From: Verrucomicrobiota bacterium
GTDB taxonomy: Bacteria > Verrucomicrobiota > Verrucomicrobiia > Limisphaerales > AAA164-E04
Reading direction: 5' to 3'
Assembly: GCA_047947115.1 (NCBI GenBank)
Contig: CP170459.1
Coordinates: forward strand, 4,544,001-4,608,000
Length of the DNA stretch: 64,000 nucleotides
In this document: piece after piece, positions 28,219-46,513 of the stretch
Layout: each line of letters starts with the position of its first letter
Position numbering within the stretch: the first letter of the stretch is position 1
Position numbers and translations under genes: made by a program
The notes under the pieces: model-generated
Databases searched by the model: none
The model's input: only the letters and a program-made list of their open reading frames with translations
What the model was told of the DNA's origin: nothing

Positions 28219-28271
28219 TAGTGATCCATTCTCATTTCCACACAGATCCGTCCCCGAACCAATAAAGCTTA

Positions 28272-29729: not shown

Positions 29730-29762
29730 AACTATCTGTAACGCCTGTTATAACAGCTACTT

Positions 29763-31352
29763 TTGACAGCCCTACCCGCATTCAAATCAAACCGTTTGCC
29801 TCCCCAGGGAAACCATGAAGCATTTCCGACTGTTCTCACAAATCTGAATCGACTGTGGGTATTAGCGCTTCTACTGATTTCCTGCATCATCAGAAATCCT
29901 TTAGTCTGGAGTCAGGAGCAAAATACAGAAGGTAATATCACCCGATTGTCTGCAGGCACGAGCACTGGGGCAGCCGACGGTGATGCTCTCCATAGAGATA
30001 TGTTGCCACTGGTCATGACTGCGTCCACCGGCAGCGGTTTGGATGTAGGCCAACAGCCTTACCAAGTCGGAGTTATTTCGGTACGCCCATCGTATATACA
30101 AATTCTTTCTAAACAACTCTCTCCTTTATATCTCCGCCCATCCGATATGATCGGAGCCACGTTTAATCCTACAAAAGCCTTCCGGTATGGTCCGGCTGCC
30201 TTGTCACAACCATTGACGGTTGATCCGGATGACATGGAAATCAGCACTTTGACATTGTTTACGTTCAGAGGATTTAATTTCAACAAACCTAGTATCGAGA
30301 TTGGACTTGATTACGACACCAACAGTAACAATACATTGGGCCAAAACTCCGCCTCAAGCATTGCCCAGCTGTCAACAATCCGAATCCCTTTTACTTACGG
30401 GACAGTTCCTGGAGATTCAGCTTTCCTCATGCGACTGGATTACAAGCCAACCTACCGATTGCTGTTGTCTGGACCTGGTGGCAATGAAATAAACCATGAC
30501 TTGATCTTTCAAGCTGGAAAAGATTTGGGGCGTTTTGCGTTTTCTTTAAACAACCAAGGCACACTTTCATCCATTCCAATTCGTGAGCTTGCCGGTCGCA
30601 ACCGTGTTTTTGCCAACCGGACAAATTTGAGATCAGCTTATGATATGACAGGAAAATCGTTCATTGTATCCGAACTTGGCCATTCATTTTCGACTCGCAC
30701 TGTAGAAGGTGCTGGTAACATTTCAAACTTATCAAAATCACCAACCATTGTAGTCGATGATTTTGAAATATTGTATAATTATCAATTACAACCTAAAATT
30801 CTCCTCATTCCGGAATTTGAGATATCGCGGACGCAAATAGCTAATTCGATTGTTTGGACAAAAGCTGTTGCCCTCAGATCGGGGTATTTTCCAACGCGAA
30901 AACTGGCTTTCACCCCTTTGGCGGGTATCCAATTCCGTGACGCAAAGGGATCTAGCACTGAAATATCAACTTATTATGGCATTGAAATGGATTATTTGGT
31001 GCGTCCGAGAACGGTACTTGAGTTGGACCTTAGATCCGAAGTTCGGCCAAGCTTTGTGGATGAAGGGATATTCCTACGGGAGAACTCGATTGAATTTGGA
31101 ATACAAGAAGCATTGCTTCTAAGGTGGCTTCTCGAACTCAGATTCAATTATACACTCAGGACCCAGGATAGCTCGATCGCGACATCCGTGATAGACCAAA
31201 CAGATATCGGGATGGAATTTACAGTAGGCTATATGTTAACAAGGTTGTCATATATTGATCTTTCCGTGAATCGCTATCAGTTGAAAGACAACATTACAGG
31301 TTTTCTCAGTACCCGCCTAAATGTGCAATTTTCATATAATCGTGCATTTTAA
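29763..31352 (+). CDS. Outer-membrane beta-barrel protein associated with polysaccharide export
   Basis: Signal-peptide-like N-terminus, amphipathic strands and a C-terminal beta-signal (NVQFSYNRAF); located directly before wza-wzc. Start codon uncertain. Confidence 0.68.
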   Translation: MTALPAFKSNRLPPQGNHEAFPTVLTNLNRLWVLALLLISCIIRNPLVWSQEQNTEGNITRLSAGTSTGAADGDALHRDMLPLVMTASTGSGLDVGQQPYQVGVISVRPSYIQILSKQLSPLYLRPSDMIGATFNPTKAFRYGPAALSQPLTVDPDDMEISTLTLFTFRGFNFNKPSIEIGLDYDTNSNNTLGQNSASSIAQLSTIRIPFTYGTVPGDSAFLMRLDYKPTYRLLLSGPGGNEINHDLIFQAGKDLGRFAFSLNNQGTLSSIPIRELAGRNRVFANRTNLRSAYDMTGKSFIVSELGHSFSTRTVEGAGNISNLSKSPTIVVDDFEILYNYQLQPKILLIPEFEISRTQIANSIVWTKAVALRSGYFPTRKLAFTPLAGIQFRDAKGSSTEISTYYGIEMDYLVRPRTVLELDLRSEVRPSFVDEGIFLRENSIEFGIQEALLLRWLLELRFNYTLRTQDSSIATSVIDQTDIGMEFTVGYMLTRLSYIDLSVNRYQLKDNITGFLSTRLNVQFSYNRAF

Positions 31353-31591
31353 TGCGCATGCACCCAGGCGCAACATTGCTTTTGCAATGCATCTCTATCA
31401 AGAATATTCTGTTTTTGAGTTGTTTGAAAACGATTCTCACAAGCAAGAATTCAAAAGAAGTCGTATCTTAATAATTCATTTCCAGCCTATTACCAAGTTT
31501 CCAGGGCCAACACATAATTACAGAATTCGTAATGGCAAGCTAATTGCTCTAGGATCAGTTAAAGGTAGCAACAGATTTAACCGATCAAAGT

Positions 31592-32341
31592 ATGAGTCAT
31601 TGGAAACAAACTATTAACAATAAAGCGTCAATGGAAACAACATGCACATTTGGAAAAGTGGCTGTGGCTCTTTGCGCCGCATTATTTTTAACGTCTGGAG
31701 CCCATGCCGGTGAAGCACAACTCCCAACTCGAAAATTTGACTACACCCCAGTATCCCTGCTCTCCGAAGGGCAAGCCAATGAGTCCAACACCATTGAATC
31801 AAACGATAACGACGCAACTAAGCGCGAGCCCTATTACCTGCGCACCGGGGATCAATTACTCTTGGAACTGACTAATCCTGGCTATGCTTTTAAGAATGAG
31901 GTCGTTGTAGACAATCAAGGAACGGTCAATCTCAATTTGCTGGGTTGGGTGAATTTAGAACAAAATACGGTTGAACAGGCCGAAAAGAAGCTGAGAGAGG
32001 CCTATGCAGAAAAATATTTCAAGAACCCCCGCATTTCTCTTAGACTGGTAAAAAAAGTACCATTACGATTCAAAATACTCGGTCAAGTAGCGCAACCAGG
32101 GTTCTACGAAGTACCTCCAGGACTTGAGGTCGACTTGTTGGACGCAATTGCAATTGCCGGGGGATACACGCGGCTGGCAAACAAGGTAACCTATAAACAC
32201 CTGACACAAGAAGATAAAAACTCACCAGCAACCGAAAAAATCGAAACATATAGAATTCGAGAACTAAAACGGTCGTCAGATACAAAAATCCCTGTTTTGA
32301 GTGGAGACGATACCATCGTGGTCGGCGAATCCATCTTTTAA
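31592..32341 (+). CDS. wza: Polysaccharide export protein (short Wza/OPX: Poly_export + SLBB)
   Basis: YYLRTGDQL, VDNQGTVNLNLLG, LGQVAQPG.Y, LLDAIAIAGG, GDDTIVVGESIF. Confidence 0.85.
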   Translation: MSHWKQTINNKASMETTCTFGKVAVALCAALFLTSGAHAGEAQLPTRKFDYTPVSLLSEGQANESNTIESNDNDATKREPYYLRTGDQLLLELTNPGYAFKNEVVVDNQGTVNLNLLGWVNLEQNTVEQAEKKLREAYAEKYFKNPRISLRLVKKVPLRFKILGQVAQPGFYEVPPGLEVDLLDAIAIAGGYTRLANKVTYKHLTQEDKNSPATEKIETYRIRELKRSSDTKIPVLSGDDTIVVGESIF

Positions 32342-32462
32342 ACAAAATTTACAATTGACTTCATTGGCAGGTAAATTTTTTGTGCGTAGCCGAGCATAGA
32401 TGAAAAAAAATAACCAGCCCTCAAGACACCGACTCCGTTTGGATTTAATATAACTGAATCAT

Positions 32463-34787
32463 TTGAAAGAAAACCAGTCCATAAAGCCTCAGGAATTGCT
32501 CAAGCTCGCCACCATTCATTGGCAGGTGATTGTGGCTACCGTGGCTGTTTGCACAGGAATTGCCTTCAATAAAACGCGAAGTTTTGAGCCTAGTTACGAA
32601 AGCCAATCAGCAGTTGAAATCAGCAATCAGTTGATCATTGACATGAACAATGTGTCGGATGTGGACGCTCGAGATACGGACATCCTCTATACATACGTTC
32701 AAAAAGCGGAATCCACTGCTGTGTTGAAGGCTGCGATCGCCGAATCAGAATGGCTTCAAGACTACTTCAACGTGGAAGACCCCTCAGATGACAAGGCGTT
32801 GACTGAGGCGGCCAAACAAATGAGCCCAGCCAAAGCAAAACTCAGGGGAGATTCCCTCATCATTGACCTGATTGCATCCGGAAGAAATAAGGATCTTGTG
32901 TATAATACAGCCAAATATGTGGCCCTAGGATTTGTAAAATCAGACAAGAATGAAAAAACAAAGGACAATCGTGATGCGCTGATAACTCTTGAAACCAAAA
33001 ATATGCCTGAAGCTGAAAGAGAGGCGCTGACTACAGCAAGAACCCTTTTTGAGTTTGAGCAAGAGTTTAATGTTTCGAATTTCGAGACGCGCAGTGCAGA
33101 TTTAGGCACCTCCCTTTACGAAAATAAAAAGGAAATTCGATCATTCGAACGAGCAATCGGTAAACTTGATAATGATCTGAAGAAAATGGAAGATTTGGGC
33201 TATGTAATCCATGGCGATATTGATGCAAATCTTGCGGCAATTTCCAAGAACTTTGTCGCATTCAGACTCATACAATCCGTCTATTCGGATGAGAACTATA
33301 TTGCTGACTACGACAAGCTGGAATCTTTGGAACGAGTCGCCAAACAACGATCGGTGGCACTATTGGATGACCATCCGGACATGAAAGACGCCATCAAGGA
33401 AGTTACTCTTCAAAAAGAGGCAGTCATAGAAACCATTGCCGAAATTCCCAACACCATCCTTTTGGAGAAAAGCAAACAGCAGGATCTGCTTGCAGATCTA
33501 GAATTTGATTACGCAGAGTTCCTAGAAGACCAGAACCTTATCGCTGAAAAGACTAGCGAATACACACGACTCAAAGCCGAGCGCGAAAGGGCTGAAAAAT
33601 TACGGGATTACGTAAACGAACGCATCGACGAGTTATCTTTCGCTGTCAATAGCGTCCCCAGCAGCATCAAGCTATTTGAGGATGCCACCCAGCCAGATCC
33701 GATTAATAAGAACAAAACCCAAACCATCTTGATGGGGTTGATTGTGGGACTGGCCCTCTCATACGGATATCTATACCTGTTGAACATGATGGATCAATCC
33801 ATCAAATCGGTTGAACAAGCCGAACAAGTGCTGCAATTACCAGTACTGGCCGCCGTCCCTGCAGCCGAACCCGATGGGCTAGAGATCAAGAATCGACTCA
33901 TCATGAAGGGTTCCTCGAATTCATCGTGCTCGGAGGCATTTCGCTCCCTACGCGTCAACATCGAGAGCATGAATCGTTCAAAATCCAACAAGGTGGTGGT
34001 GTTCACCAGCTCCATGCCCTCAGAAGGAAAAACCTTCACCTCCATCAATTATGCAGCTTCCCTGGCACAACAGGGTCATAAAACTCTGCTCATAGACATG
34101 GATTTGAGAAAACCCGCCGTCGCAAAGGATTTTGGCATTGAAAAGTCGAACTATGTTGGGTTGACAGAAATCATTACTTCTGACGAAAAGCTAGAACAAT
34201 TTCCTGAATTACCCATGTACCAGGCTGCAGAAGGGCTTTCCATTCTGCACGGAGGCCCCCTCATTGACAACCCAGCCGAGCGATTGTCCAGTTATGCCGT
34301 AGAGCGTATCGTAGAAAAAGCAAGGGAACACTTCGATCGGGTTGTCATTGACTCGGCTCCTTTGGGACCTGTTGGAGATACATTAACGGTTGCACGCCTC
34401 GCTGACATGGTCTGCCTGGTAGTGCGTTCAGCCAAAACACCTTCAAAGATGATTCTAAGAATCATCGACACATTACATCGCCATGGTCATACTCCCGCAG
34501 GAATTGTCCTGAACTTCATGAAGATCAAGTCAGGTTACGGCTCTTATTACTATTATTACAGCAGTGATAAGCAACCTGAAATCATTACCGAGAAACCTCC
34601 CTATAAACGTAAGTCCGGTGATGTTGCCAAATCAAGTATCGCGCCAGCCAAGTTGGAGGAAAGTGGTGGGTTAGAGGAATCTGATCCTAAAAAAAAACAG
34701 ATTCCATCTGAACTCGAATCATTATTGAAGCCGAAACAGGAATATACTCGGCGTGATAAATCTGTTGAGTGTCGCCCTTCCGTCTGA
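32463..34787 (+). CDS. wzc: Polysaccharide co-polymerase / BY-kinase (Wzc)
   Basis: Coiled-coil periplasmic domain and TM helix, then EAFRSLR, TSSMPSEGKT, LIDMDLR, VIDSAP and Tyr cluster GYGSYYYYY. Confidence 0.92.
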   Translation: MKENQSIKPQELLKLATIHWQVIVATVAVCTGIAFNKTRSFEPSYESQSAVEISNQLIIDMNNVSDVDARDTDILYTYVQKAESTAVLKAAIAESEWLQDYFNVEDPSDDKALTEAAKQMSPAKAKLRGDSLIIDLIASGRNKDLVYNTAKYVALGFVKSDKNEKTKDNRDALITLETKNMPEAEREALTTARTLFEFEQEFNVSNFETRSADLGTSLYENKKEIRSFERAIGKLDNDLKKMEDLGYVIHGDIDANLAAISKNFVAFRLIQSVYSDENYIADYDKLESLERVAKQRSVALLDDHPDMKDAIKEVTLQKEAVIETIAEIPNTILLEKSKQQDLLADLEFDYAEFLEDQNLIAEKTSEYTRLKAERERAEKLRDYVNERIDELSFAVNSVPSSIKLFEDATQPDPINKNKTQTILMGLIVGLALSYGYLYLLNMMDQSIKSVEQAEQVLQLPVLAAVPAAEPDGLEIKNRLIMKGSSNSSCSEAFRSLRVNIESMNRSKSNKVVVFTSSMPSEGKTFTSINYAASLAQQGHKTLLIDMDLRKPAVAKDFGIEKSNYVGLTEIITSDEKLEQFPELPMYQAAEGLSILHGGPLIDNPAERLSSYAVERIVEKAREHFDRVVIDSAPLGPVGDTLTVARLADMVCLVVRSAKTPSKMILRIIDTLHRHGHTPAGIVLNFMKIKSGYGSYYYYYSSDKQPEIITEKPPYKRKSGDVAKSSIAPAKLEESGGLEESDPKKKQIPSELESLLKPKQEYTRRDKSVECRPSV

Positions 34788-34815
34788 TTCCAGATCCTGA
34801 GAACTCGAATCAGAC
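34782..34815 (+). terminator. Hairpin overlapping the wzc stop (possible terminator or processing site)
   Basis: GTCTGATTC (34782-34790) pairs with GAATCAGAC (34807-34815); no clear U-tract. Confidence 0.3.
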
Positions 34816-34875
34816 AGACATTGGAATTCTTGCTGATCCAAGGGAGCTGTTAACAGTTAATTACAATTCCAAATA

Positions 34876-35772
34876 GTGCTTCCCCAATGGAATTGCCTTC
34901 AATTCGAGATGATTTGCAACATGTCCAGTCCTGCAGTTGAACCGATTCGTAAACAACTCGACGAATCTGGACAACTGGCTTATAAGATGAATCGAGTAGA
35001 CAATCGATTTGTTATCCAATACTCAGACAAGCTCCAATATAGTGTTGCTCCTCAATTACCGGAAAATCACCCTGACCAGGTCCATGTCAGTTGCACTCCT
35101 GATATCCCGGAATCGATCAAGTCACATTTCTATACCAACCAGATCCTTCCGATGATCAAGGCTTGGAAAGGCGCCGTAGTTTTGCACTCAAGCTCCATTC
35201 AATTGCAGTCGTGCTGTGTCGGTTTCTTTGGCCGTTCGGGCGCTGGTAAATCAACACTTGCCAACTTGCTCTCTCTCAAGCCGGAGTTTTCTTTTTGGAG
35301 TGATGATTGGTTTGAGATCCTGACAGACAAGGGAAGATGCACTTCATCTTTCACGCCTGGTCAAACGCGACTAAACCCTGATCATACGAGAGCATTGAAA
35401 AGGTTACGTTTGCTGGCCCCCGATCTCGAGCCGATAAATGAAGAAGAAAAGTTAATTTTCTCCCCCCCTTCCCCTTCCCTGAAGAAACAGTCCGAAGTAA
35501 GGAGCCTTTATCAATTGATCCCATCAGCCCCGGATGTCGGAATTCATTGCGTGCGTTTATCACCTGCAAAGGCTTTTCAGGCTATCAGTCTCAATATTTT
35601 CAGGCTGGATACCCGTAACAAGGAACACATGAAAAGGGAGTATACTCAAATCGTCCACATCGTTGAAAGTCTACCGGTTTATCGCTTTTACTACCCGCAT
35701 GACCTAGATCAGATGGAAGCATCACTCCATTTTATCGAGCGTCACATAATAGATTCTGCTCCTCATCCCTGA
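34876..35772 (+). CDS. HPr kinase-related serine kinase (lasso-peptide kinase-like)
   Basis: VLHSSSI, Walker A GRSGAGKSTLA and SDD, as in HprK-like kinases. Start uncertain. Confidence 0.8.
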   Translation: MLPQWNCLQFEMICNMSSPAVEPIRKQLDESGQLAYKMNRVDNRFVIQYSDKLQYSVAPQLPENHPDQVHVSCTPDIPESIKSHFYTNQILPMIKAWKGAVVLHSSSIQLQSCCVGFFGRSGAGKSTLANLLSLKPEFSFWSDDWFEILTDKGRCTSSFTPGQTRLNPDHTRALKRLRLLAPDLEPINEEEKLIFSPPSPSLKKQSEVRSLYQLIPSAPDVGIHCVRLSPAKAFQAISLNIFRLDTRNKEHMKREYTQIVHIVESLPVYRFYYPHDLDQMEASLHFIERHIIDSAPHP

Positions 35773-35775
35773 CTT

Positions 35776-37584
35776 ATGGGATTTCATCGTTACTGGATCA
35801 ACGCGTTCAAAGGAAGATTCAAGAACCTTTTGTTGGCTTTGCGTTTCTTCTGGGAATGCTCCCCCAAGACAGCGGGTTTGTCTCTTGCTTTGGTGATTCT
35901 GGCTGGATTGTTTCCCCTTCTGATGGTCAATGTCACTCGACATGTCATCAATCAATTCGATTCCATTGAAAACATCCGGAGTTGGTTAACAGGTTCGGGG
36001 TTGCTCCTGCTGCTGACCATCATCGGTCGGGAGGCCATCCATTTGCTGGGTAATTTGATCAGAACATTCCATGAGGGACGCGTATCCGATTACGTGAATT
36101 CTCGTGCACAACAAATTGCCTCTTCGGCCGACATGGCACATTATGAGTCGTCAACATTCTATGACCACCTATACCGGGCTGGATTTGAATCGGATCAACA
36201 TGTCATCGATGTCACCGAACATATGGCGGCGATCGTTTCGGGAACGATCACGCTGTTGGGGTTGTTGTTCCTGGTCGGCCGATATTCAAGCTGGCTGCCA
36301 ATTGTTTTTTTCGCTGCTTCATTGCCTGTCTTCCTGACATTAATAACCCAATCACACAAAAGATATCAATGGAACCAATCCATGACCAAGATCCAGCGAA
36401 AAAGCCGCTACTTGAACTGGCTTCTGGTGGGTCAAGAGTCTGCGGGAGAATTGAGGATTTACGGTCTCCAGAATTTATTAGTCAAAAAATACAAGGAATT
36501 GCGTGAAAAAGTATTGCTGACACGTACCAAACTGGAACAAAAGCAAGCTTTATGGGTTTCAGGCGCCAATGTCCTATCGTTGTGCATGCTGGGAGGAGGA
36601 ATCGCTTTGCTTACACAAGCATTCCAATCAGGCGCCATTGACAACGGTTCCGTCGCCCTCATCGGACACTCCATTCTACTGTGCCGACAATCCACACAGA
36701 CGCTCCTCAGTGAAACAGCCAGCCTTTACAGAGCGTCCCTGTTTCTGGCTGATCTGGATTATGTCATTAATTTGAAACCACAGATCAATGCACCGGAAAA
36801 ACCTAAAAACTTCACATCACTTGTGCACCATGAAATCCGGTTTTCCAATGTCAGTTTCACCTATCCAGAAATGGAAGCACCGGCGATCAAGCATTTAACC
36901 GTAACGATTCCGCCCAAAAAGCTCACCGTCATCCTGGGTAAGAACGGATCTGGAAAATCAACACTCGGTAAAATGCTGTGTCGTTTTTTTGATCCTGATG
37001 ACGGCGAGATAACGCTGGGTGAAATTCCATTGAAGGCATTTGATCCAAAGCAACTCAGAAATCATTTGGGCTGTTTGTTTCAAGACCCTGTTCGATATTA
37101 CTTTTCAGCCGAGGAGAACGTCATCTTTGGGAACACAGATATCAGAAACGATCCCAAGGCATTTGCGAAGGCGATCAACTCATCCATGGCTGCCTCAGTC
37201 ATTTCCGATCTACAGAACGGTAAAGACACTCCACTGGGCAGATGGTTCCAGGAAGGAACCGAACTCAGCGGAGGTCAATGGCAGCGGCTTGCCCTTGCCA
37301 GAACACATTACGCAAATCGTCCTATTTGGATTTTGGATGAACCAACCAGCGCTATGGATCCATGGACAGAAAGGAAGTGGCTTGAAAACACGCGGCAAGA
37401 TGCGGTCGATAAAACAATTATTCTGATTACTCACCGGATCAGTTCAGCAGCGATTGCAGACCATTTAATCGTCATGGATTCCGGCCAAGTCGTTGAGTCG
37501 GGAAGCCCGTCAGAATTGCTGGAACAAAGAGGGATTTTTGCAAAGCTATACAATGAATCAGCGACTCAGTTTCCCAGGACATGA
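35776..37584 (+). CDS. ABC exporter, fused permease/ATP-binding (no C39 domain)
   Basis: TM helices, GKNGSGKST, ELSGGQWQRLALAR, ILDEPTSAMD, ITHR. Confidence 0.93.
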   Translation: MGFHRYWINAFKGRFKNLLLALRFFWECSPKTAGLSLALVILAGLFPLLMVNVTRHVINQFDSIENIRSWLTGSGLLLLLTIIGREAIHLLGNLIRTFHEGRVSDYVNSRAQQIASSADMAHYESSTFYDHLYRAGFESDQHVIDVTEHMAAIVSGTITLLGLLFLVGRYSSWLPIVFFAASLPVFLTLITQSHKRYQWNQSMTKIQRKSRYLNWLLVGQESAGELRIYGLQNLLVKKYKELREKVLLTRTKLEQKQALWVSGANVLSLCMLGGGIALLTQAFQSGAIDNGSVALIGHSILLCRQSTQTLLSETASLYRASLFLADLDYVINLKPQINAPEKPKNFTSLVHHEIRFSNVSFTYPEMEAPAIKHLTVTIPPKKLTVILGKNGSGKSTLGKMLCRFFDPDDGEITLGEIPLKAFDPKQLRNHLGCLFQDPVRYYFSAEENVIFGNTDIRNDPKAFAKAINSSMAASVISDLQNGKDTPLGRWFQEGTELSGGQWQRLALARTHYANRPIWILDEPTSAMDPWTERKWLENTRQDAVDKTIILITHRISSAAIADHLIVMDSGQVVESGSPSELLEQRGIFAKLYNESATQFPRT

Positions 37585-37612
37585 CACGGAGGAGCAGAGC
37601 GGTTGGAGTCAT

Positions 37613-38764
37613 TCAAGCGGCGCCGAAATATTTACGAACGCCTTTCACGATACGCTCTCCATGCCTGAGCAATGTATGCTTTGATTGGAAGGAAGCAGCC
37701 ATGTAACTATTCGGAGGAAAGATCCAACGCCATAGATATGAGAATTTTGCTTTGGCGGTAGGAATTTCCAACCACCGATTCACAAGGTCATGCGCTTTTG
37801 AATATCGCTGTTCCAAATACCCTGCGCTGGTTTCCCTTCCTGAAGCCACTTGTTTTTGAAGATCAAACATGACCTTTTCGGGGGCACCGAATTTCAGCAC
37901 GCGATTCACGTCTTCAAGACAGACTTTCAATATGGTGGCCACCTCTTTATCGATCGCAAGTTCCACTAATTTTTGCCAATCAGTTACGGAAAAGGACTGC
38001 CCCAAATAAAACAAGTCCAACAACCATGCAAAACGGCGATCCTGAGGAAAATGCCCCGCACGATGGACGCATAAATAGATGAAATGATCTACTTTGTCTG
38101 GTATCCAAACGGCTTCATTTTCGATTGAAATTTGAACAGCCTTTTCCAGAAGTTCCTGATAGGAGAAAACACATAGCAAGGGCCGGTTGTTCAAACGCAA
38201 ATGCAATTCGATCAAAGGTGACTCAGGATAGTTTTCTGAAGCACTGTAGCACTTTTCAAACGAAAGGTAGCCCCAGTTCAAGCAGGGAGCAGATTGATAG
38301 CCCAGTTGGGTCAAGCATTCATTGGCCGAATCCCAATCCTCCGGATCAATCAACAAATCGATATCATGACTGGTCCTCCAATGAACACGTGGATAGACCG
38401 TATTACCGAGAGCCGGGCCTTTGAGTAGAATGGGCTTCATACCCGCCTGTTGCATGCTCCCCACCACCCTTGCAAGGGTTTGTTGCCGATAGGCACACGC
38501 TCCTGCTATTTTCAGGGATTCCAATCTTAAGTGAGTGAACCACGGTTCATTAACAAATGATCCCTTTGAACCAGCTTTTAGCTTTTCGTAAACGATGGGC
38601 TGAATGTTAAGCTTTTTACACAAGTCCAAAAATCTATCGCCATCACAATTTGACAGTGGAACCTCGATATCACCATGTAGGTAGAATAACGCATGTTGCA
38701 GAACAGGATCTTCCAATCCTTGTTCCGGTTCCCATAATTCTTTAATATTCCTTTTTGGGTGCAT
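37613..38764 (-). CDS. Nucleotidyltransferase family protein (NTP_transf_5-like)
   Basis: ILLKGPAL..YP...R.SHDIDLLI, IELH, YLCVH, WLLDL. Confidence 0.85.
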   Translation of the reverse strand: MHPKRNIKELWEPEQGLEDPVLQHALFYLHGDIEVPLSNCDGDRFLDLCKKLNIQPIVYEKLKAGSKGSFVNEPWFTHLRLESLKIAGACAYRQQTLARVVGSMQQAGMKPILLKGPALGNTVYPRVHWRTSHDIDLLIDPEDWDSANECLTQLGYQSAPCLNWGYLSFEKCYSASENYPESPLIELHLRLNNRPLLCVFSYQELLEKAVQISIENEAVWIPDKVDHFIYLCVHRAGHFPQDRRFAWLLDLFYLGQSFSVTDWQKLVELAIDKEVATILKVCLEDVNRVLKFGAPEKVMFDLQKQVASGRETSAGYLEQRYSKAHDLVNRWLEIPTAKAKFSYLWRWIFPPNSYMAASFQSKHTLLRHGERIVKGVRKYFGAA

Positions 38765-38800
38765 GAAAATTCACAGACATCCGGGTTTAGGAGTCCAGAT

Positions 38801-38857
38801 ATGACTACCAAGCTCCCTCCTGGGACATCATTCATACCCAAACCATTGAAATTATGA
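38801..38857 (+). CDS. Putative 18-aa micro-ORF MTTKLPPGTSFIPKPLKL
   Basis: AGGAG at 38789-38793, 7 nt before ATG 38801. Its TGA overlaps the RRE start (ATGA). Confidence 0.3.
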   Translation: MTTKLPPGTSFIPKPLKL

Positions 38858-39165
38858 AACAATATCCAGAAGAATTACATTTATCAGATCAGAAATTCCA
38901 GTCCTCCTCCAACATTATGTTTCGTGAACTGGAAGATGAATCCGTCCTTCTGAACCTCAATGACGAGTCATACTATTCATTAAACAGCACTGGAACGATG
39001 ATCTGGAATCTGCTTCAGTCCTGCTCAACACTGAAGGACGCTTTTTACGAATTCCAAAAACAATTTGAAATAGAGCCAGCCAAGGCGGCTGCGGATTTCG
39101 ATCAACTGATGAAGCAATTATTGGAAAAACAATTTGGGACTCTTGAAACAACAACACGACCATAA
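38854..39165 (+). CDS. PqqD-family RiPP recognition element (lasso B1-like)
   Basis: RELEDESVLLNL..ESYYSLNSTGTMIWNLL...DF..LM.QL is the classic PqqD/RRE pattern; 103 aa. Confidence 0.9.
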   Translation: MKQYPEELHLSDQKFQSSSNIMFRELEDESVLLNLNDESYYSLNSTGTMIWNLLQSCSTLKDAFYEFQKQFEIEPAKAAADFDQLMKQLLEKQFGTLETTTRP

Positions 39166-39622
39166 TATCTGCCTGTCAATTCCGGCAAAGTTACGGGTCT
39201 TCCTATGGACAATGGCACAATGGTGTTTGATCCGGCGAATGATTAAAAAGGAGGGATTCCTCAACGCTTGCGAACGTTGGAAAATAAAACCAACGGCCCT
39301 GTCTCACATGCATGCCTGCACTGTCCCATCAGATCAGCTTGATCACATACCCAGTGATATTCATCGAATGGTTCTGAGGGCGGGCAAATGCTTTCCGGAC
39401 AAACGCAACAATTGTCTACCGAGGGCGTTGGCTGCAGCCTATTGGATGCAACATTTCAATATACCTTACCGAATCCGAATAGGTATCCGGTCCGAGAGTA
39501 AAGCAATTTTGACATCGGCACATGCCTGGATCGAAGTTAATGGCAGGGCCATTGGCGAATTGGAAGAATCAATTGAGCAATTGAAGCCTCTGGATCCTTA
39601 TCCAAACCATACAAGCGTATGA
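39134..39622 (+). CDS. Lasso peptide B2-type leader peptidase (transglutaminase-like)
   Basis: NCLPRALA (Cys), RIGIR, AHAWIE (His). Confidence 0.88.
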   Translation: MGLLKQQHDHNICLSIPAKLRVFLWTMAQWCLIRRMIKKEGFLNACERWKIKPTALSHMHACTVPSDQLDHIPSDIHRMVLRAGKCFPDKRNNCLPRALAAAYWMQHFNIPYRIRIGIRSESKAILTSAHAWIEVNGRAIGELEESIEQLKPLDPYPNHTSV

Positions 39623-41454
39623 GTCAACTCTCAGGAGTCATCACAGTTGATCCTCAAAACATCATCCATCAACATTTTCTACACATACTGGAGGAAAAGG
39701 CATATCAGGCCCAAGGATCATGCGGCACTCTCATATCCAGTCAGCCGATCTATGCACAAAAGGGAATCTATTTCACCGGAACTGCTCAATTTTTAAAACT
39801 CAACAACCAGCCTTTGACACCCGATGAACTGCTTACGGCATGGCATCAAACTGGCATCAGCACTTTACAGAGCCTGAGTGGTGAGTTCTGCTTTTTAATA
39901 TGTGATACACGACAAACCCTTGATGTCTGGGCTGTTCGTGATCATTTTGGTTCGGTCCCTTTACATTACTGTAAGGAACGGACTTTTTTTGCCTTTTCCC
40001 AAAGAGCCAGGCCGCTGTGGGATCTTCCCATTGACACGGTACGCACACTCAATGAATCCAGAATTTTAGATTATATTGTCGACGATCTGGAGCACTCCAC
40101 TCACACGGCAACTTTTAGGCAAAACATTCATAAAGTCCCTTTGTCAGGATGTGTCCACTGGCAAAGCAATCGGATTACAACACATCAATATTGGAAGCCC
40201 GATCTCACTGTCACGAAGCCGGATATCACGGAAAAGTCCGCCCTGGAGAACTATCAATCATTATTGATACGCTCTATTTCAAACAAATCAGGAGAGAGTA
40301 ATGCGACGGCACTATTGGCCAGCGGCGGGCTGGATTCCAACTCAATTCATACCGCCTGGAAAAAGACAACACGTTACACGGAAGGAAACAACCACCTCAT
40401 TTCTCTCCTCCCGGATAAAGATAACCGGGATGATCTTGAATGTGAGATGCTTATGCATGAAGTCTCCAAAGAGTGCCCCCTGCCCCACAATTACATTACT
40501 CCTGGAATCGTCCTGCGAACCATGGGACCTGTTGAGTCATTCGTGCATCAACTGGAAGACCCTTTTACGGTGCACACCCTTTCAGGACCTGCTCCTTGTT
40601 ATAAGTTCGCATCCGACATCGGTGTGACCCATGTCATGGACGGCATCGATGGAGATCTGGTTGGTGGCATTCCATCGAGGTATTGGAACTATTTATGGGC
40701 AGGAGGCGAGAAGAAAAATGCCATTTTCGAATGCATCCTCAACCATAAACACCATGAGGAACCATTCTCTAAAAGCATCAAAGCTTTGATCAGAATGCTG
40801 CTTGCAAACCAAATTCCGGGGGTGCTGAGACGCCTGGATTCGATTTCCTCCAAGAAAGCCTGGGATCGTGAACAGGCAACGCGCTGGAAACGTGATTTAA
40901 GAATACGTGATGCAGCATTCACCGAATCATTCATCACACAACGAATTGCATTACTTCGATCCAACCATCCCACGCCGTCATGCCCCAGCCTGGGAGAATA
41001 CCTGCATCAAGGAATGTTGTCTCCGATGCTGGGAGTCGGCATAGATCGATACGAAGAAGCAGCACATATGTTCGGTCTGAAGGCAGCTCATCCCATTTTG
41101 GATAAAGATCTGGCTGAATTCCTCCTTGGGCTTCCGTGGCGATTCAGGGTAAAAAATGGTAATGAAAAAAGTCTTTTCAGGCTTTTTCTCGATCAAAATC
41201 ATCAAAAGAACATTGCGAATCAAGCAAAACTACCCCACGTGGGACCCTGGTTCACTTTGGCCTACCTGCGTGATTACCTGATCAGGAATCCAAAACCAAA
41301 AACCGAATGCCTGGACGCCGTAAACCGCTATGTAGATGCCACATGGCTCCAGACTGAATGGCATAATGCCCTTCACAGCAACTCCTTGATAGAAGTTAAT
41401 GAGGATCTGTGGCGAATGCTGATGCTGGGAGAATGGCTGGTTCAAAACGCTTGA
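39619..41454 (+). CDS. Asparagine-synthetase-related protein (lasso cyclase-like ATP-dependent amide ligase)
   Basis: RDHFGSVPLHY, ASGGLDS, DGIDGD, HPILDKDLAEFLLGLP, KSLFR. The N-terminal catalytic Cys is absent (MSQLSG). Confidence 0.85.
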   Translation: MSQLSGVITVDPQNIIHQHFLHILEEKAYQAQGSCGTLISSQPIYAQKGIYFTGTAQFLKLNNQPLTPDELLTAWHQTGISTLQSLSGEFCFLICDTRQTLDVWAVRDHFGSVPLHYCKERTFFAFSQRARPLWDLPIDTVRTLNESRILDYIVDDLEHSTHTATFRQNIHKVPLSGCVHWQSNRITTHQYWKPDLTVTKPDITEKSALENYQSLLIRSISNKSGESNATALLASGGLDSNSIHTAWKKTTRYTEGNNHLISLLPDKDNRDDLECEMLMHEVSKECPLPHNYITPGIVLRTMGPVESFVHQLEDPFTVHTLSGPAPCYKFASDIGVTHVMDGIDGDLVGGIPSRYWNYLWAGGEKKNAIFECILNHKHHEEPFSKSIKALIRMLLANQIPGVLRRLDSISSKKAWDREQATRWKRDLRIRDAAFTESFITQRIALLRSNHPTPSCPSLGEYLHQGMLSPMLGVGIDRYEEAAHMFGLKAAHPILDKDLAEFLLGLPWRFRVKNGNEKSLFRLFLDQNHQKNIANQAKLPHVGPWFTLAYLRDYLIRNPKPKTECLDAVNRYVDATWLQTEWHNALHSNSLIEVNEDLWRMLMLGEWLVQNA

Positions 41455-41549
41455 TTCAGGATTATTTTGCCAAAACAAAGCCCCTCGATTATTAATTATC
41501 CCGATCCAGTGACATCGGATCAAAGAGAAACACAATCAATTGACTTGAC

Positions 41550-42392
41550 ATGACAGATTCGGCACATCCCACAAAGGCAGTAACAGTCATCGCCCCCGGC
41601 CGACAGGGGTTGATGTCGAGTATGCGGGACCTCATTGAATATCGGGATTTGTTCGTATTCTGGATTTGGAGAAGCATTAAAATTCGATATGCACAAAGTG
41701 CTCTGGGTATTGGCTGGGCGATAGTCCAACCTCTGTTCAGCACCATCGTGTTCACCATCATTTTCGGGAACCTGGCAAAAATAAACTCGGACGGTTTGCC
41801 CTATGCCGCCTTTAGTTTCGCAGCTCTTTTGCCGTGGACATTCTTTGCCAACAGTGTGACAGAAAGCACCGGAAGCCTGATCCAAAACGCCAACATGATC
41901 AGCAAGATTTACTTTCCCAGGATCATTCTGCCCTTGGGAGCCATGGTGGCCAAGCTACTCGATTTCGCGATAGCCATGGTTGTCATGATTGCCATGATCT
42001 GCTGGTACCGTATCGTACCTGGAATACAAATATTGGCTCTGCCTTTTCTCATTCTGCTGATGTTTACCACTTCGGCCGGGGTGGGCATATTACTGACAGC
42101 GATGGCCATCCAGTTCAGGGATATCAAATACGGAATCAATTTTGCGCTTCAACTCCTGATGTATGCAGCCCCTGTGGTGTATCCCTTGAGCAAGGTTCCG
42201 GACAAATACCATCTCGTCTATGCTTTGAACCCAATGGTGGGAGTGATTGAGGGCTTTCGTTCCTGTCTGCTGAATTCACGTCCCCTTCCCTGGGAATTGA
42301 TCTTGATTGGAGGCGTTACCTCGACACTGTTATTGTTATTTTCCATCCACTACTTTCACACCAAAGAACGACTTTTTGCAGACGTCGCGTAG
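41550..42392 (+). CDS. wzm: ABC-2 type polysaccharide transport permease
   Basis: YRDL, RYAQSALGIGWAIVQP, SKIYFPR, FRDI, LNPM..VIEGFR. Confidence 0.92.
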   Translation: MTDSAHPTKAVTVIAPGRQGLMSSMRDLIEYRDLFVFWIWRSIKIRYAQSALGIGWAIVQPLFSTIVFTIIFGNLAKINSDGLPYAAFSFAALLPWTFFANSVTESTGSLIQNANMISKIYFPRIILPLGAMVAKLLDFAIAMVVMIAMICWYRIVPGIQILALPFLILLMFTTSAGVGILLTAMAIQFRDIKYGINFALQLLMYAAPVVYPLSKVPDKYHLVYALNPMVGVIEGFRSCLLNSRPLPWELILIGGVTSTLLLLFSIHYFHTKERLFADVA

Positions 42393-42435
42393 CCGAGGTT
42401 CAGCTTCCAAACGTTCCATTCCCTTTCATAGCAAC

Positions 42436-43713
42436 ATGACGAAACCACTCATTTCCGTCGAAAATCTATCAAAAGCCTACCGTATTGGTGCCAAAGAAGA
42501 TATTCCAGACACCCTGGCATCCGCGGCCAAAACATGGCTGAAATCCCCTTTCAAAAACTTTAAAAACCTCTCTCGACTCAACACCTTTGAAGGCACCGAC
42601 ACGAGAAACATTCATTGGGCGTTGAAAGATGTCTCCTTCAAGGTGCAAGAAGGAGAAGTTATTGGAATCATAGGACATAATGGAGCGGGAAAAAGCACTC
42701 TGCTGAAAATCCTTTCAAGAATTACACAACCGACAAAAGGACGAGCCGTCATCCAGGGAAGAATATCAAGTCTGCTGGAAGTGGGCACCGGTTTTCATCC
42801 GGAACTGAGTGGTCGTGAAAACATTTACATGAACGGCACCATCCTCGGAATGAAGAAAGTCGAGATCGACCGAAATTTCGATGATATTGTCGATTTCTCA
42901 GGCATAGGGAAGTTTCTGGACACACCCATCAAGCGCTATTCCAGCGGAATGAAAGTGCGACTAGCCTTCTCCATCGCAGCCTATCTTGAACCTGAAATAC
43001 TGGTCATTGACGAAGTGCTGGCAGTGGGTGATCAGGAATTTCAAAACAAATGCCTGGGCAAAATGCAGGACGTCGCAAAATCGGGGCGAACGGTGCTGTT
43101 CGTCAGTCATAACATGGCCGCCGTTGAATCGCTCTGCACCAGGGGAATCCTGCTCAAAAACGGAAGCATCGCTTTATCCGGACGAGTAGCGGACGTCACC
43201 ACTGAATACCTCAAACCCAAAGGAAGCGGCAATCTGGATCAAACCGCTCGCTTTAAGTCAGAAGACACCCTCATACGTGACATTCAACTATTGAATTCCA
43301 ACAACGAACCAACAGACGCCATTGCAACCGGATCCGACATTTGTTTCAGCATCAAACTTCAATCTGACCATCCCCTCAGCAACCTAACTCTCAGAATAGT
43401 ATTAACGACGGACAATGGAATTCGAGTCTGCAATTGCAATTCGAGAATTGAAACAAATCGACTTTTTGACGTTAAACAGTCCGCCGCCGTGGAAGCTCGC
43501 CTTACCCGGCAAAGACTCGCACCTGGAAAATATTTGGTTGCCGTCGGGGTTTTTCACCACGGAGAAGAACTGCAGAACGTGGACCCAGCATTTACATTTG
43601 AAATATTGGCTTCAGATATTTTTGGAACAGGACTTTTGCCCAGCAGTCGAAAAGCTGTCTATCTTCCCGAATGCGAATGGATCTTTCCGGGTCTGCCAAT
43701 CTCATCGAATTAA
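42436..43713 (+). CDS. wzt: Polysaccharide ABC transporter ATP-binding protein with C-terminal Wzt_C domain
   Basis: WALKDVSF, GHNGAGKSTLLK, GFHPELSGRENI, YSSGMKVRLAF, DEVLAVGD. Confidence 0.94.
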   Translation: MTKPLISVENLSKAYRIGAKEDIPDTLASAAKTWLKSPFKNFKNLSRLNTFEGTDTRNIHWALKDVSFKVQEGEVIGIIGHNGAGKSTLLKILSRITQPTKGRAVIQGRISSLLEVGTGFHPELSGRENIYMNGTILGMKKVEIDRNFDDIVDFSGIGKFLDTPIKRYSSGMKVRLAFSIAAYLEPEILVIDEVLAVGDQEFQNKCLGKMQDVAKSGRTVLFVSHNMAAVESLCTRGILLKNGSIALSGRVADVTTEYLKPKGSGNLDQTARFKSEDTLIRDIQLLNSNNEPTDAIATGSDICFSIKLQSDHPLSNLTLRIVLTTDNGIRVCNCNSRIETNRLFDVKQSAAVEARLTRQRLAPGKYLVAVGVFHHGEELQNVDPAFTFEILASDIFGTGLLPSSRKAVYLPECEWIFPGLPISSN

Positions 43714-43749
43714 CAACCCTCCACCACTGACAATTTCACCGAAAACACA

Positions 43750-44472
43750 ATGAGCTTTATAGGTAAACTCCTCAAACATGGAAAAAACGGCACGCTTTTC
43801 AAGACCCTTCGAAAACGCCTTTTCAATGCTGCAAATCATAAAAATGATGCTCCTATTGGAGATACCTACTACGGATCACGCGCCGAAGACTATCTGGCAA
43901 AACGTCATCAACAGGAATACTGGCATCTCGAGCAAAAACAAATAGTAAAAATGTTGTCTCGACTTCCAAAAGGAAGTTCTGTGTTGGATGTGCCGTTCGG
44001 AACTGGGCGTTTTGTCAAGGATTACTTGCAAAATGAGTTCAATGTGACCGGACTGGATGCATCTGAAGACATGCTCAAAGTGGCGAAAAAGGAATTAGGT
44101 GAACTATTCAATAAAATAAACGTATCGGTTGGAGATGCCACTCAACTCCCCTATCCCGATCAATCATTTGATTACGTCGTGTGCATACGGTTTCTAACCC
44201 ACATTGTCAATTACGAACAAGCGCGGGCCGTGCTCAGGGAGTTCCGCCGCATCACACGAAATCAATTGATTCTTCAGTTACGCATGCGCCTGGACAAATG
44301 TCCACCAACGGAATTCCCGAAACCTGACCAGCAAATCGGAGACCGTCTGAATCAAAATCAACTCAAGGACCTGCTGGGCGAGTTTGGATTTGAAGTGAAG
44401 CATATCGAAGTGCTCGAAGAGCGGGATACCTACTGTCGAGCCATTTTTCTTTGCGCTCTGTCATCAAAATAA
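43750..44472 (+). CDS. Class I SAM-dependent methyltransferase
   Basis: VLDVPFGTGR, GLDAS, GDATQLPYPDQSFD. Confidence 0.88.
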   Translation: MSFIGKLLKHGKNGTLFKTLRKRLFNAANHKNDAPIGDTYYGSRAEDYLAKRHQQEYWHLEQKQIVKMLSRLPKGSSVLDVPFGTGRFVKDYLQNEFNVTGLDASEDMLKVAKKELGELFNKINVSVGDATQLPYPDQSFDYVVCIRFLTHIVNYEQARAVLREFRRITRNQLILQLRMRLDKCPPTEFPKPDQQIGDRLNQNQLKDLLGEFGFEVKHIEVLEERDTYCRAIFLCALSSK

Positions 44473-44490
44473 GATCCATTCAACATTCCA

Positions 44491-45447
44491 TTGAACTTGA
44501 ACGACCATCCAAAGATTGCGCCTTCAAAAGACCACCCTGACGTCATCCTCGTTGAGTGGGCGAAACGAAGCGGAAGCACGGATCCACTATGTTGCAGAGT
44601 GGATTTACTGGGGCCTCCTGCAGCTGGCAAATCCACGCTATGCAAGGCAATATTTGATACTCTGCATGAGGACAGCATGAACGGCTGGATTGATTTGAGC
44701 GAAGCAAAACAGAGAGCCATCCGACACGCATTCTCCAAAGCCATACCAAAGCCCACTGCAAGGACCCGAGTTTTCGAACTGATACGGGCGATTAAAAACT
44801 TTCTGACTGCCCAGGACGGTAACCTGGAGGCGATTCCTTACTTTTCAAGCAATTTCGATTACCTTCGGGAACGAATGATGGAATCTTTTGCCACATCCCA
44901 TCATTGTTTTTTAGAGGCTTTAGCCGAACAGTGGCATGACCCCGACACCCCATTACCCCCTAAATTCGAACGATTTCATCTCGTCCGGCAATGGATCAAG
45001 GAGTTATTGTTCATAACGAGTTTCGTCGGTGACACAAAGGTGATTGCTGACAACGCGAGGCTGACAAAAGGCATGGCCGAATTGCTTTCAAACCCTCGCT
45101 TTCAGAACGCGCAAAAAATTGTGTCCGAATACTGCCAGTCTCCCATGGCCCCCACAGGGATCATTCACCTTGCAGCCTCCGTCGAAACGGTGAATCAACG
45201 TTTTAAACAACGTCATAAGGAATCGGGCAGACTGAATCCTGGTCATGACTCGCGATCCCAAACTGAAATAGCAACCTATACGGCACGAAAGAACTCTGTG
45301 AATGAACATGCCATTGGCTTTTTTGAAAGCCAGGGAATTGCCGTGCTCAATCTCACGGCAGAGTCGGAGCTGCGAATGAATGTGAGTCAAGTCATATCCT
45401 TTTTGAAGGGGCTGCCCCAAAAAAAATCCATCAATGGACAGGCCTGA
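44491..45447 (+). CDS. P-loop NTPase / nucleotide-kinase-like protein
   Basis: LLGPPAAGKSTL Walker A; IIHLAAS..V..R..R lid-like segment. Confidence 0.6.
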   Translation: MNLNDHPKIAPSKDHPDVILVEWAKRSGSTDPLCCRVDLLGPPAAGKSTLCKAIFDTLHEDSMNGWIDLSEAKQRAIRHAFSKAIPKPTARTRVFELIRAIKNFLTAQDGNLEAIPYFSSNFDYLRERMMESFATSHHCFLEALAEQWHDPDTPLPPKFERFHLVRQWIKELLFITSFVGDTKVIADNARLTKGMAELLSNPRFQNAQKIVSEYCQSPMAPTGIIHLAASVETVNQRFKQRHKESGRLNPGHDSRSQTEIATYTARKNSVNEHAIGFFESQGIAVLNLTAESELRMNVSQVISFLKGLPQKKSINGQA

Positions 45448-46513
45448 TCATTCCACGACAATGAAACACATATTTCGAAGCCTACGAAGACGGTCCCATC
45501 AATTTGCTTTGCGTCACGCTCGTCAGAATCGTTTTTTTTCATCGGTTTTTTATGCCTTTTTCTCCCGGCGGTTTGACCGGGAACATGTTGGAGTCCTTCA
45601 AGGCCAGCAGCAGTTTTCCATTTCGAACGGCCCTGAGGGTTCCTGTTCAACGACCCTCAGGCGCAACACGCACCGATTGGAAAAGGGATTGATCATGCGT
45701 CCGAGAAAGGATGTTTTTGCTCTTGCCTACATTGAGGAGACAATCAAAGCCTACCAGCAATCGGTTTCCCATACCAACGGGCAGGCAAATGAAGAAATAT
45801 GCTGGGCTCATGATGTGCTGAAGGATTATTTCGACGTATGTGGGGCGCACCCATTGATCGATCGTTTACGCAAAACATTCAACAGCATTCCCCCCTTGCC
45901 GCTTAGATGCGCACCTGATAGGGCCAAGGCCTTTCACCCTTATCACCGCAACCTCAAGGCACCAGCTTCTGTCCATTATGATGAATTGCTCAAGCTCGCA
46001 GAACGACGTCGTTCAACCCGTTGGTTCAAGCAAAGCCCGGTCCCCAGAGAGCTCATTGAAAAGGCTGTCATCGTCGCCGGTTTATCCCCCAGCGCTTGCA
46101 ACCGACAACCTTTTGAATTCCGCTTTTTCGACGCCCCTGGCTTGCGCGAAAAGGTGGCTGAACTTCCAGGTGGCACAAAGGGCTTTGCGAATCAATGCCC
46201 CGTCATAGGTGTGGTTCTTGGTAATCTGGCGCATTACTACGACGAAAAGGATCGTCACGTCATCTACATAGACGGCAGCCTCGCCACCATGAGCCTGATC
46301 CTGGCTTTGGAGACACTTGGACTCGGTTCGTGCTGCATCAATTGGCCCGATATCGAAGAAGATGAAATTAGAGCCCAAAGTGTGTTGAACCTTACTACTT
46401 ATGAAAGACCCATCATGTTTCTTGCCATCGGTTATCCTGATCCAGAAGGAATGGTTCCCTATTCAGCCAAAAAATCAAAGGAACAATTATGTCGATGGAA
46501 TTACCTGGGATGA
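45434..46513 (+). CDS. Nitroreductase family protein
   Basis: RRRSTRWF, SPSACNRQP, LALETLGLGSC; N-terminal LRRNTHRLEKGL. Alternative start at 45461. Confidence 0.85.
   Translation: MDRPDHSTTMKHIFRSLRRRSHQFALRHARQNRFFSSVFYAFFSRRFDREHVGVLQGQQQFSISNGPEGSCSTTLRRNTHRLEKGLIMRPRKDVFALAYIEETIKAYQQSVSHTNGQANEEICWAHDVLKDYFDVCGAHPLIDRLRKTFNSIPPLPLRCAPDRAKAFHPYHRNLKAPASVHYDELLKLAERRRSTRWFKQSPVPRELIEKAVIVAGLSPSACNRQPFEFRFFDAPGLREKVAELPGGTKGFANQCPVIGVVLGNLAHYYDEKDRHVIYIDGSLATMSLILALETLGLGSCCINWPDIEEDEIRAQSVLNLTTYERPIMFLAIGYPDPEGMVPYSAKKSKEQLCRWNYLG

Follow-up and report, generated by a model that had tools for sequence, protein, structure and literature searches.

A lasso-peptide-type maturation cassette in a polysaccharide export locus of a Verrucomicrobiota bacterium, with candidate precursors encoded in trans

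Organization of the locus

The window, which is the whole 64,000-nucleotide stretch of DNA analysed here, contains six adjacent ORFs (K, D, N, B1, B2 and C) between wzc and wzm/wzt. This arrangement, described in an earlier note on the same DNA, is confirmed by the ORFs and their family matches, although the six genes do not form a single co-oriented run because N is encoded on the minus strand. The features of the locus are as follows.

31592..32341, plus strand: wza-like polysaccharide export protein, context (PF02563, PF10531)
32463..34787, plus strand: wzc chain-length regulator/tyrosine autokinase (TIGR01007, 137.5 bits, cut-off 108)
34788..34875, no strand: empty precursor slot, the 88-nt gap between wzc and K, with no precursor ORF and no DNA remnant
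34876..35772, plus strand: K, HprK-like peptide kinase (motif residues; weak HprK-related matches)
35776..37584, plus strand: D, MsbA-like ABC exporter (PF00005)
37613..38764, minus strand: N, nucleotidyltransferase-like protein of the PsmN/BsfN type (PF14907, 134 bits, E 8.7e-39)
38854..39165, plus strand: B1, stand-alone RRE of the PqqD family (PF05402, 51 bits, above cut-off)
39134..39622, plus strand: B2, lasso leader cysteine protease (PF13471, 53 bits; NF033537, 48.3 bits, cut-off 33)
39619..41454, plus strand: C, lasso cyclase of the asparagine synthetase fold (PF00733; NF033535 is the best NCBIfam match)
41550..43713, plus strand: wzm/wzt ABC-2 glycan exporter, context (PF01061, PF14524)

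The wzc gene is the fixed upstream neighbour of the cassette and shares 47% identity with wzc of the same-genus genome G033, and orthologues of the wza-like gene occupy the same position in G033, G153, G156, G166, G168 and G169. The wzm/wzt flank is not conserved, as an MsbA-like ABC gene follows C in G033 and G153. The glycan locus encodes its own initiating transferase (PF00953) and a Wzy-like polymerase/ligase in addition to Wzm/Wzt. Single contigs from runs X2, X5 and X7, three studies that do not include the possible source, span the wzc-K gap without insertion; contigs from RNA runs also span wzc, K and D, which does not show transcription. No signal peptidase match is found among the 50 window proteins scanned.

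Maturation, tailoring and export genes

Each of the six genes has its full length and intact key motifs, and the matches to PF14907, PF05402, PF13471/NF033537 and PF00733 bear out the lasso toolkit of the kinase/nucleotidyltransferase type that was recognized previously. The HprK-related matches of K are weak (TIGR04355/04352, E about 2e-3), and its motif residues H104, G119, G122, G124, K125, S126, D143 and D144 are invariant in all 10 aligned rows. The spacing of this H-G-G-G-K-S-D-D motif is nearly equal to that of BsfK in the published description (PMC10368454), and by analogy K is predicted to phosphorylate Ser3 of the core. D scores under the cut-offs of TIGR02203 and NF045513, is 48% identical to D of G033 and yields no peptidase domain in family searches. 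In N, residues D134 and D136 are invariant (9/9 rows) and the inverted orientation is retained in relatives; its sequence has no match in the PDB.

B1 is the only stand-alone protein of the two PF05402 matches in the genome, the other lying within a 719-aa frame, and its nearest PDB sequences are the lasso B1 proteins TbiB1 and TfuB1; it scores under both lasso-RRE cut-offs (NF033536, NF033530). B2 is a single match in the genome, with C94 and H130 invariant in 8/8 rows. C lacks the N-terminal catalytic (glutaminase) Cys, has an invariant S235-G236-G237-x-D239-S240 motif (SGGxDS) and reaches 128 bits against NF033535, below the cut-off of 525. A quick tree with SH-aLRT supports places C in a clade with named lasso cyclases (98), apart from the Cys-start AsnB proteins (97), and its structural model (pLDDT 88) has a predicted fold that matches Asn synthetase and beta-lactam synthetase. 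Its scores against AsnB-type families are 56.9 bits for TIGR03108 (cut-off 816.9) and 95.4 bits for TIGR01536 (cut-off 267.1), and a separate Cys-start AsnB is encoded in the same genome at C1:1834533.

Two precursors distant from the cassette

No lasso-type short ORF is present in cis among the 309 ORFs of at least 20 aa between positions 28000 and 46000. The earlier conclusion that a canonical precursor is missing is therefore correct at the locus and incorrect for the genome (G000), in which the proposed genome-wide search recovers two canonical precursors in trans, both about 3.5 Mb from the cassette and outside the window; a peptide encoded in trans was one of the options raised in the earlier note.

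G000:C1:988651-988818, plus strand: distal precursor, 55 aa
G000:C1:1062794-1062952, plus strand: distal precursor, 52 aa

Both precursors contain Tyr-17, Pro-14, Leu-12, Thr-2, Gly1, Ser3 and Glu8, and they match the canonical lasso pattern of a YxxPxL leader, Thr-2, a small first core residue and Asp/Glu at 7-9. Their cores carry charges of +6 and +8 with polycationic Ser/Lys tails, end in Pro and Thr, neither of them in Ser, and have no aromatic residue. A loose genome-wide motif gives 154 matches, and the full pattern in intergenic DNA is found for only 2 of them. With both distal precursor types left out of its construction, a profile searched against 171,386 six-frame segments matches exactly these two distal ORFs (E 6e-13 and 7e-13), with a next best E of 4.8 and a best reversed-sequence control of 0.25; the cis precursor of G033 used as a query recovers the same two ORFs (E 3.3e-6 and 1.8e-4). 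The precursors are not recognized by NCBIfam or Pfam.

As judged from substitution patterns, the distal precursors are under purifying selection: pN/pS is 0.13 for precursor 2, compared with 0.11 for the neighbouring GalU-like gene, and 0.37-0.39 for precursor 1, and the precursor ORF DNA is 80-86% identical, whereas the flanks are 61-68% identical. Promoter scans near the distal genes remain at chance (1 found versus 1.6 expected, and 2 versus 1.9). A TTGAC element was seen upstream of 7/7 precursor genes inspected by eye and is a lead only. CotH kinase genes lie next to some precursors, and this adjacency is a weak link because G000 contains 30 CotH matches.

A precursor of the same family as the distal ones is also borne on a phage-like contig. 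No true precursor was found in the viral collections, none of the 25 viral loci having one, and a single match was rejected because it lies inside a 241-aa phage ORF.

Genes retained at wzc and genes that move

Homologous precursors are found within the wzc-K gap in three genomes of the same genus (two in G033 and one each in G153 and G156); the clustering of precursor and enzymes, which is usual and not chemically defining for lasso peptides, is thus present in these genomes and absent from G000. In the aligned precursors, Tyr at -17, the Pro and Leu of the leader, Thr at -2, G1, G2 and S3 are invariant (27/27) and Glu8 is present in 26 of 27, and among the matches listed for the sister genus, G1-G2-S3 and Glu8 occur in 12/12.

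B1-B2-C and the precursors are scattered in the sister genus, while K-D-N still lie behind wzc there. C accompanies B1-B2 outside any glycan locus in G166, G167, G168 and G169; a sister-genus system wholly outside glycan loci is ruled out, as K-D-N are located at wzc there. The suggested conservation of the linkage to the polysaccharide locus holds, in that K follows wzc in all seven family genomes with K found and upstream DNA present, seven cases that share ancestry and are not independent. The wzc-K junction is kept in two genera with a kinase identity of only 22-25%. G151 (88% complete) keeps precursor 2; C, K and N are not found in it.

Neighbourhoods were also surveyed more widely, as had been proposed. 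A glycosyltransferase, wzc or wza match lies within 20 kb of 9 of 20 PF14907 loci across the phylum, a selected set, compared with 15/304 windows of G000. In contrast, glycan-gene matches are absent at all 11 B2 loci examined in other families of the order, of which four lie near contig ends, and several of these loci carry K and N, which indicates that linkage to EPS genes is not required for such clusters.

Comparison with known systems

The leader/core pattern, the RRE, the Cys/His protease and the cyclase without an N-terminal Cys agree with class II lasso systems with a split B protein. The Bsf cluster of Bradymonas sediminis (bsfA, B1, B2, C, D, K, N), in which Ser3 is phosphorylated, has seven gene types in common with the present system, as well as the Tyr-17/Pro-14/Leu-12 leader, Gly1, a ring residue at position 8, a conserved Ser3, no C-terminal Ser and a BsfK-type kinase motif, the comparison being with the published description (PMC10368454). 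The two differ in that Thr-2 is invariant here, whereas Bsf has Ile-2 (Ile/Val), and Glu8 (26/27) corresponds to Asp8 of Bsf. The Lys/Ser-rich cationic tail, the location of the precursors megabases away and the placement of the machinery within a polysaccharide locus are further differences; bsf has FG-GAP and ribosomal genes at its flanks and is not in such a locus (PMC10368454).

Pseudomycoidin (psmCAKB1B2ND) and paeninodin of Bacilli resemble the system in the split B1/B2, the HprK-like kinase, the ABC exporter and the PsmN-type transferase with two acidic residues (PMC6993621, PMC9266682). Pseudomycoidin is a phospho-hexose product, and PsmN is needed for the hexoses on phospho-Ser (PMC6993621). 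However, these peptides are phosphorylated at a C-terminal Ser, whereas Pro or Thr is the last residue of the present cores; Trp leaders are preferred by paeninodin RREs, in contrast to the Tyr leader here, and the precursor here is not clustered with its enzymes (PMC6993621, PMC9266682). The linear polyphosphorylated peptides (LPPs) of Bacillota share an RRE together with an HprK-like kinase, as well as an NTP transferase plus an MsbA-like exporter, often in capsule loci, but use a SipW-like peptidase without a cyclase, whereas B2 and C are present here (PMC13381572). Pseudomycoidin- and paeninodin-type clusters are often located with capsular polysaccharide loci as well, and because this is already published for Bacilli (PMC13381572), the capsule co-location is less surprising than first rated. 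A search limited to listings of openly accessible papers returned no report of a lasso precursor megabases from its enzymes. What is new is the trans-encoded precursors, their polycationic Ser/Lys tails, and the retention of the tailoring and export genes at wzc when the core is dispersed.

Proposed pathway and alternative explanations

We consider it quite probable, from the sequences, that the cassette is a working lasso maturation and export set with two trans substrates about 3.5 Mb away, the likely product being a polycationic lasso-type peptide that is phosphorylated at Ser3 and possibly decorated with sugar. By analogy with BsfK and PsmN, B1 would bind the YxxPxL leader, K would phosphorylate Ser3 on the precursor and N would put a hexose or nucleotide onto the phosphate; B2 would cut two residues after Thr-2, C would join Gly1 to Glu8 to close the ring, and D would export the finished product. 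Ser3, not a C-terminal Ser, is the predicted acceptor, as it is invariant here and corresponds to that described for BsfA (PMC10368454). The product may be branched-cyclic instead of threaded, because both G000 cores lack aromatic residues. More tentatively, the exported basic peptide may act at the anionic cell-surface glycan made by the locus around the cassette. This would account for the retention of K, D and N behind wzc while the others move; a role in glycan biology is what we infer.

The location could also be regulatory or historical, the product being a free secreted lasso peptide (a signal, a competitor toxin or a phage-related factor) that is co-expressed with EPS and does not act on it. 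Polycationic peptides commonly act on membranes, which would suit such a product, as would the K- and N-bearing clusters without glycan genes in other families, the flanks of bsf and the phage-like contig with its precursor. This explanation deserves serious weight while falling somewhat short of even standing, as the wzc-K junction persists over two genera despite the divergence of the kinases, and pseudomycoidin and paeninodin showed no antibacterial activity (PMC6993621). An extension of the main explanation, which does not exclude it, would make the peptide a covalent glycan carrier or primer: the first sugar added by N to phospho-Ser3 would be extended by the glycosyltransferases of the locus, and the glycopeptide exported by D would anchor or seed the surface polysaccharide. 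The persistence of K, D and N right behind wzc in the sister genus, the glycan genes near PF14907 loci and the dependence of hexosylation on PsmN (PMC6993621) are consistent with such a carrier. We nevertheless regard it as unlikely, since the locus needs no peptide carrier, having its own initiating transferase, polymerase/ligase and exporter, glycan matches are absent at 11/20 PF14907 loci and 11/11 other B2 loci, and the sister-genus split may be one single event.

The empty slot, together with G151, where a precursor but no machinery was found, would suit a relic that lost its cis precursor by deletion and whose distal ORFs have ceased to be processed; with six intact genes, constrained distal ORFs (pN/pS 0.13-0.39) and dispersed precursors as the rule in the sister genus, decay of this kind is improbable. 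Least probable is the amide ligase that the earlier note had offered, in which C, as a ligase or amidotransferase, would decorate the polysaccharide with B1/B2 as passengers. The fold common to Asn synthetase and amidotransferases, the weak TIGR03108 match and the position of C in an EPS locus are compatible with it, but C has no N-terminal Cys and falls outside the Cys-start AsnB clade, the genome has its own AsnB, C moves with B1-B2 and not with the EPS locus in the sister genus, and cognate-type precursors exist.

Returning to the lasso maturation set with trans substrates, a broader version for this Verrucomicrobiota family is speculative: a multi-precursor, genome-wide pathway with its glycan-facing half (K, N, D) in the capsule locus, whose polycationic phospho-glyco-lasso products would prime, cross-link or anchor anionic polysaccharide, and into whose host enzymes a large phage would feed its own precursor.

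Significance

Canonical substrates of lasso clusters that appear to lack a precursor can lie megabases away, where mining of cluster windows misses them. The family amounts to a natural dissection, in which the core enzymes and precursors move while the kinase, transferase and exporter do not leave wzc, and this retention points towards a link to the glycan through the modified phospho-serine. The strongly basic peptides are a chemically unusual type that could be made by heterologous expression. Lasso peptides of the kinase/nucleotidyltransferase type are noted as frequent in capsule loci (PMC13381572), and the present peptides give a handle on why such peptides adjoin capsule genes.

The Cassette and Its Glycan Locus

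The six ORFs that the earlier note described between wzc and wzm/wzt are present, and their names are backed by Pfam and NCBIfam.

Cassette ORFs in the window, each assigned by Pfam/NCBIfam
34876-35772: K, HprK-like kinase
35776-37584: D, ABC exporter
37613-38764, minus strand: N, PF14907 nucleotidyltransferase-like protein
38854-39165: B1, RRE
39134-39622: B2, Cys/His protease
39619-41454: C, cyclase

The surrounding glycan region of ~40 kb contains rml genes, GT2 and GT4 glycosyltransferases, Wzy-like and heparinase-like proteins, an initiating transferase, wza, wzc, wzm/wzt, a pyruvyl transferase, a sulfotransferase and a deacetylase. An IS4-family transposase (17302-18510, minus strand) is inserted in this locus, and a P-loop kinase-like ORF (44491-45447) and a nitroreductase-family ORF (45434-46513) lie downstream of wzt. 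The stretch is found in metagenomes from estuary, seawater and marsh, and its relatives carry the label Verrucomicrobiota.

No lasso-type short ORF occurs among the 309 ORFs of window positions 28000-46000, in agreement with the earlier note, and the 88-nt wzc-K gap is spanned without insertion by single contigs of three other studies, which indicates that the absence of a cis precursor is real.

Distal Precursors

The lack of a canonical precursor noted earlier applies to the locus only, not to the genome. Scanning the 6.08-Mb source genome (G000) in six frames for the motif gives 154 loose matches, and the full lasso pattern is present in two intergenic ORFs, precursor 1 (C1:988651-988818, plus strand, 55 aa) and precursor 2 (C1:1062794-1062952, plus strand, 52 aa). 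Their distance to the cassette is ~3.5 Mb as measured on the contig, or ~2.5 Mb if the contig is circular. Exactly these two ORFs are retrieved with a cis precursor of G033, a genome of the same genus. A 17-row profile from which both distal types and an outlier were excluded also picks out these two alone when run against 171,386 segments (E 6e-13 and 7e-13; next match 4.8; reversed-sequence control, E 0.25); NCBIfam and Pfam recognise neither. The only B2 match and the only stand-alone RRE match in G000 are both inside the cassette.

Directly upstream of precursor 1 is an AT-rich block with two-component genes and an IS5-like transposase (L004:467-8144), which is missing there in the near relative L052. 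A GHMP sugar kinase and a GalU-like nucleotidyltransferase (L005:7626-9535) lie upstream of precursor 2, in the same order in G151 (L075). Precursor 1 and one precursor of the sister genus have CotH kinase-domain genes as neighbours (L004:10093-12465; L078:10136-13636; L085:6227-9745; L118:5196-8630); with 30 CotH matches in G000, this adjacency may be chance.

The orthologous locus of G033, with cassette proteins 35-56% identical, carries two precursors between wzc and K, and G153 and G156 (L049 is apparently the same record as the latter) carry one each in this slot. Distal-site orthologues are present in the near relatives L051-L053 and G151; their precursor DNA is better conserved than the flanks, with pN/pS of 0.37-0.39 for precursor 1 and 0.13 for precursor 2. 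Of 21 other family genomes searched, 8 have precursors. In the sister genus (G166-G169) there are two to four per genome, at scattered sites. In the alignment of 27 family precursors (23 found by search, some near-identical to the four seeds), Tyr-17, Pro-14, Leu-12, Thr-2, Gly1, Gly2, Ser3 and Gly4 occur in every sequence; 26 also have Glu8, and the net core charge of these 26 is +6 to +13. The sister-genus precursors (L078-L086) keep G1-G2-S3 and Glu8, with Met/Ser/Trp-rich tails, some containing two Cys. A long type of 81-88 aa (P0002, P0006, P0010, P0011, P0014, P0016; L036:4956-5207) carries an extended tail with a conserved hydrophobic segment.

Two metagenome contigs also encode a 49-aa member of this precursor family (L054:2446-2595; L055:3127-3276), whose ORF overlaps the final part of a CCA-adding-like gene and lies among small AT-rich ORFs of 29-37% G+C. 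The best phage match of the CCA-adding-like gene is 44%, in a 735-kb phage, and a PHROG 11543 gene on the contigs has relatives on 24 viral contigs. The contigs, only 5-6 kb long, are probably of phage origin. No lasso enzymes are present on them, and a phage-borne precursor that uses host enzymes is possible.

Enzymes and Predicted Chemistry

B2 retains Cys94 and His130. C retains the SGGxDS motif, lacks an N-terminal Cys, and is modelled (pLDDT 88) with an Asn synthetase/beta-lactam synthetase fold. In a quick tree of 49 rows, C falls in a clade with the three NCBI-named lasso cyclases that the tree included (SH-aLRT 98), apart from ten Cys-start AsnB proteins, one of them from G000 (SH-aLRT 97). 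Its score against NF033535 is far under the cut-off, and two other cyclases with cis precursors are placed elsewhere in the tree. The suggestion that C is an amide ligase decorating the polysaccharide is disfavoured and appears very improbable.

The motif residues of K (His104, Gly119, Gly122, Gly124, Lys125, Ser126, Asp143 and Asp144) correspond to the motif of BsfK, which phosphorylates core Ser3 (PMC10368454). The DxD of N is invariant, and PsmN requires such an acidic pair to place hexoses on phospho-Ser (PMC6993621). Beyond the gene content, motifs, precursor identity, selection and synteny observed here, known lasso biochemistry suggests that B1 would bind the leader, K would phosphorylate Ser3, B2 would cleave the precursor, C would join Gly1 to Glu8, N would decorate the phosphate and D would export the product. 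Neither G000 core contains an aromatic residue, and both have Lys/Arg/Ser tails, which makes threading uncertain; pseudomycoidin is reported to be unthreaded when unmodified (PMC6993621).

A PRMT-like SAM methyltransferase lies between K and D in the sister genus (L116:5368-6513, L118:14602-15753, L120:16661-17500, L121:5082-6230), with a PF22528 match in one of two proteins scanned. Arg or Lys residues in the basic cores are possible methylation targets.

Known Systems and Linkage to Glycan Genes

In sequence-level tests the system behaves as a lasso cluster, and its cassette appears to work like the Bsf and pseudomycoidin clusters. It is neither a Bsf member nor a paeninodin, since the G000 precursors lack the Ile-2/Asp8 of the former and the C-terminal Ser of the latter. 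Co-location with capsular polysaccharide loci is already published for paeninodins and LPPs, whose function PMC13381572 gives as unknown. A literature search returned no case of a lasso precursor encoded megabases away from the enzymes that process it, a point on which the papers' supplements may bear.

Within the family, the proposed linkage to the polysaccharide locus is conserved. K follows wzc in all seven informative genomes, which share ancestry; in G166, G168 and G169 the orthologous glycan locus has K, the methyltransferase, D and an inverted N immediately after wzc, and the G167 contig stops at K. Sister-genus B1-B2-C has no glycan genes around it in G166-G169; its neighbours are a DHH-family pyrophosphatase-like gene and either a sugar ABC transporter or unknown genes. 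Across the phylum, 76 of 301 genomes contain PF14907 and 13 contain K-like genes. Of 20 PF14907 loci, 9 have a match to a glycosyltransferase, wzc or wza within 20 kb, versus 15 of 304 G000 windows; the 20 are a biased sample, picked from 95 listed places because of a high score, a long contig or a neighbouring K, and the queries came from the window. However, 11 B2 loci in other families of the order, several with K and N, all lack such a match, which, together with the unconserved wzm/wzt flank, argues against a strict glycan link. G166 also has a second, unrelated lasso-like cluster (L088, C1, about 10.03 Mb) with C, a sulfotransferase, B2, B1, K, 2OG-Fe oxygenases and ABC genes; sulfotransferase clusters akin to it occur at L031 and L033.

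A peptide serving as covalent carrier of the glycan would suit the wzc-K order, less so the 11 loci, and seems unlikely. As the weakest step of the lasso reading, the exported peptide may act at an anionic surface glycan, by charge or covalent linkage.
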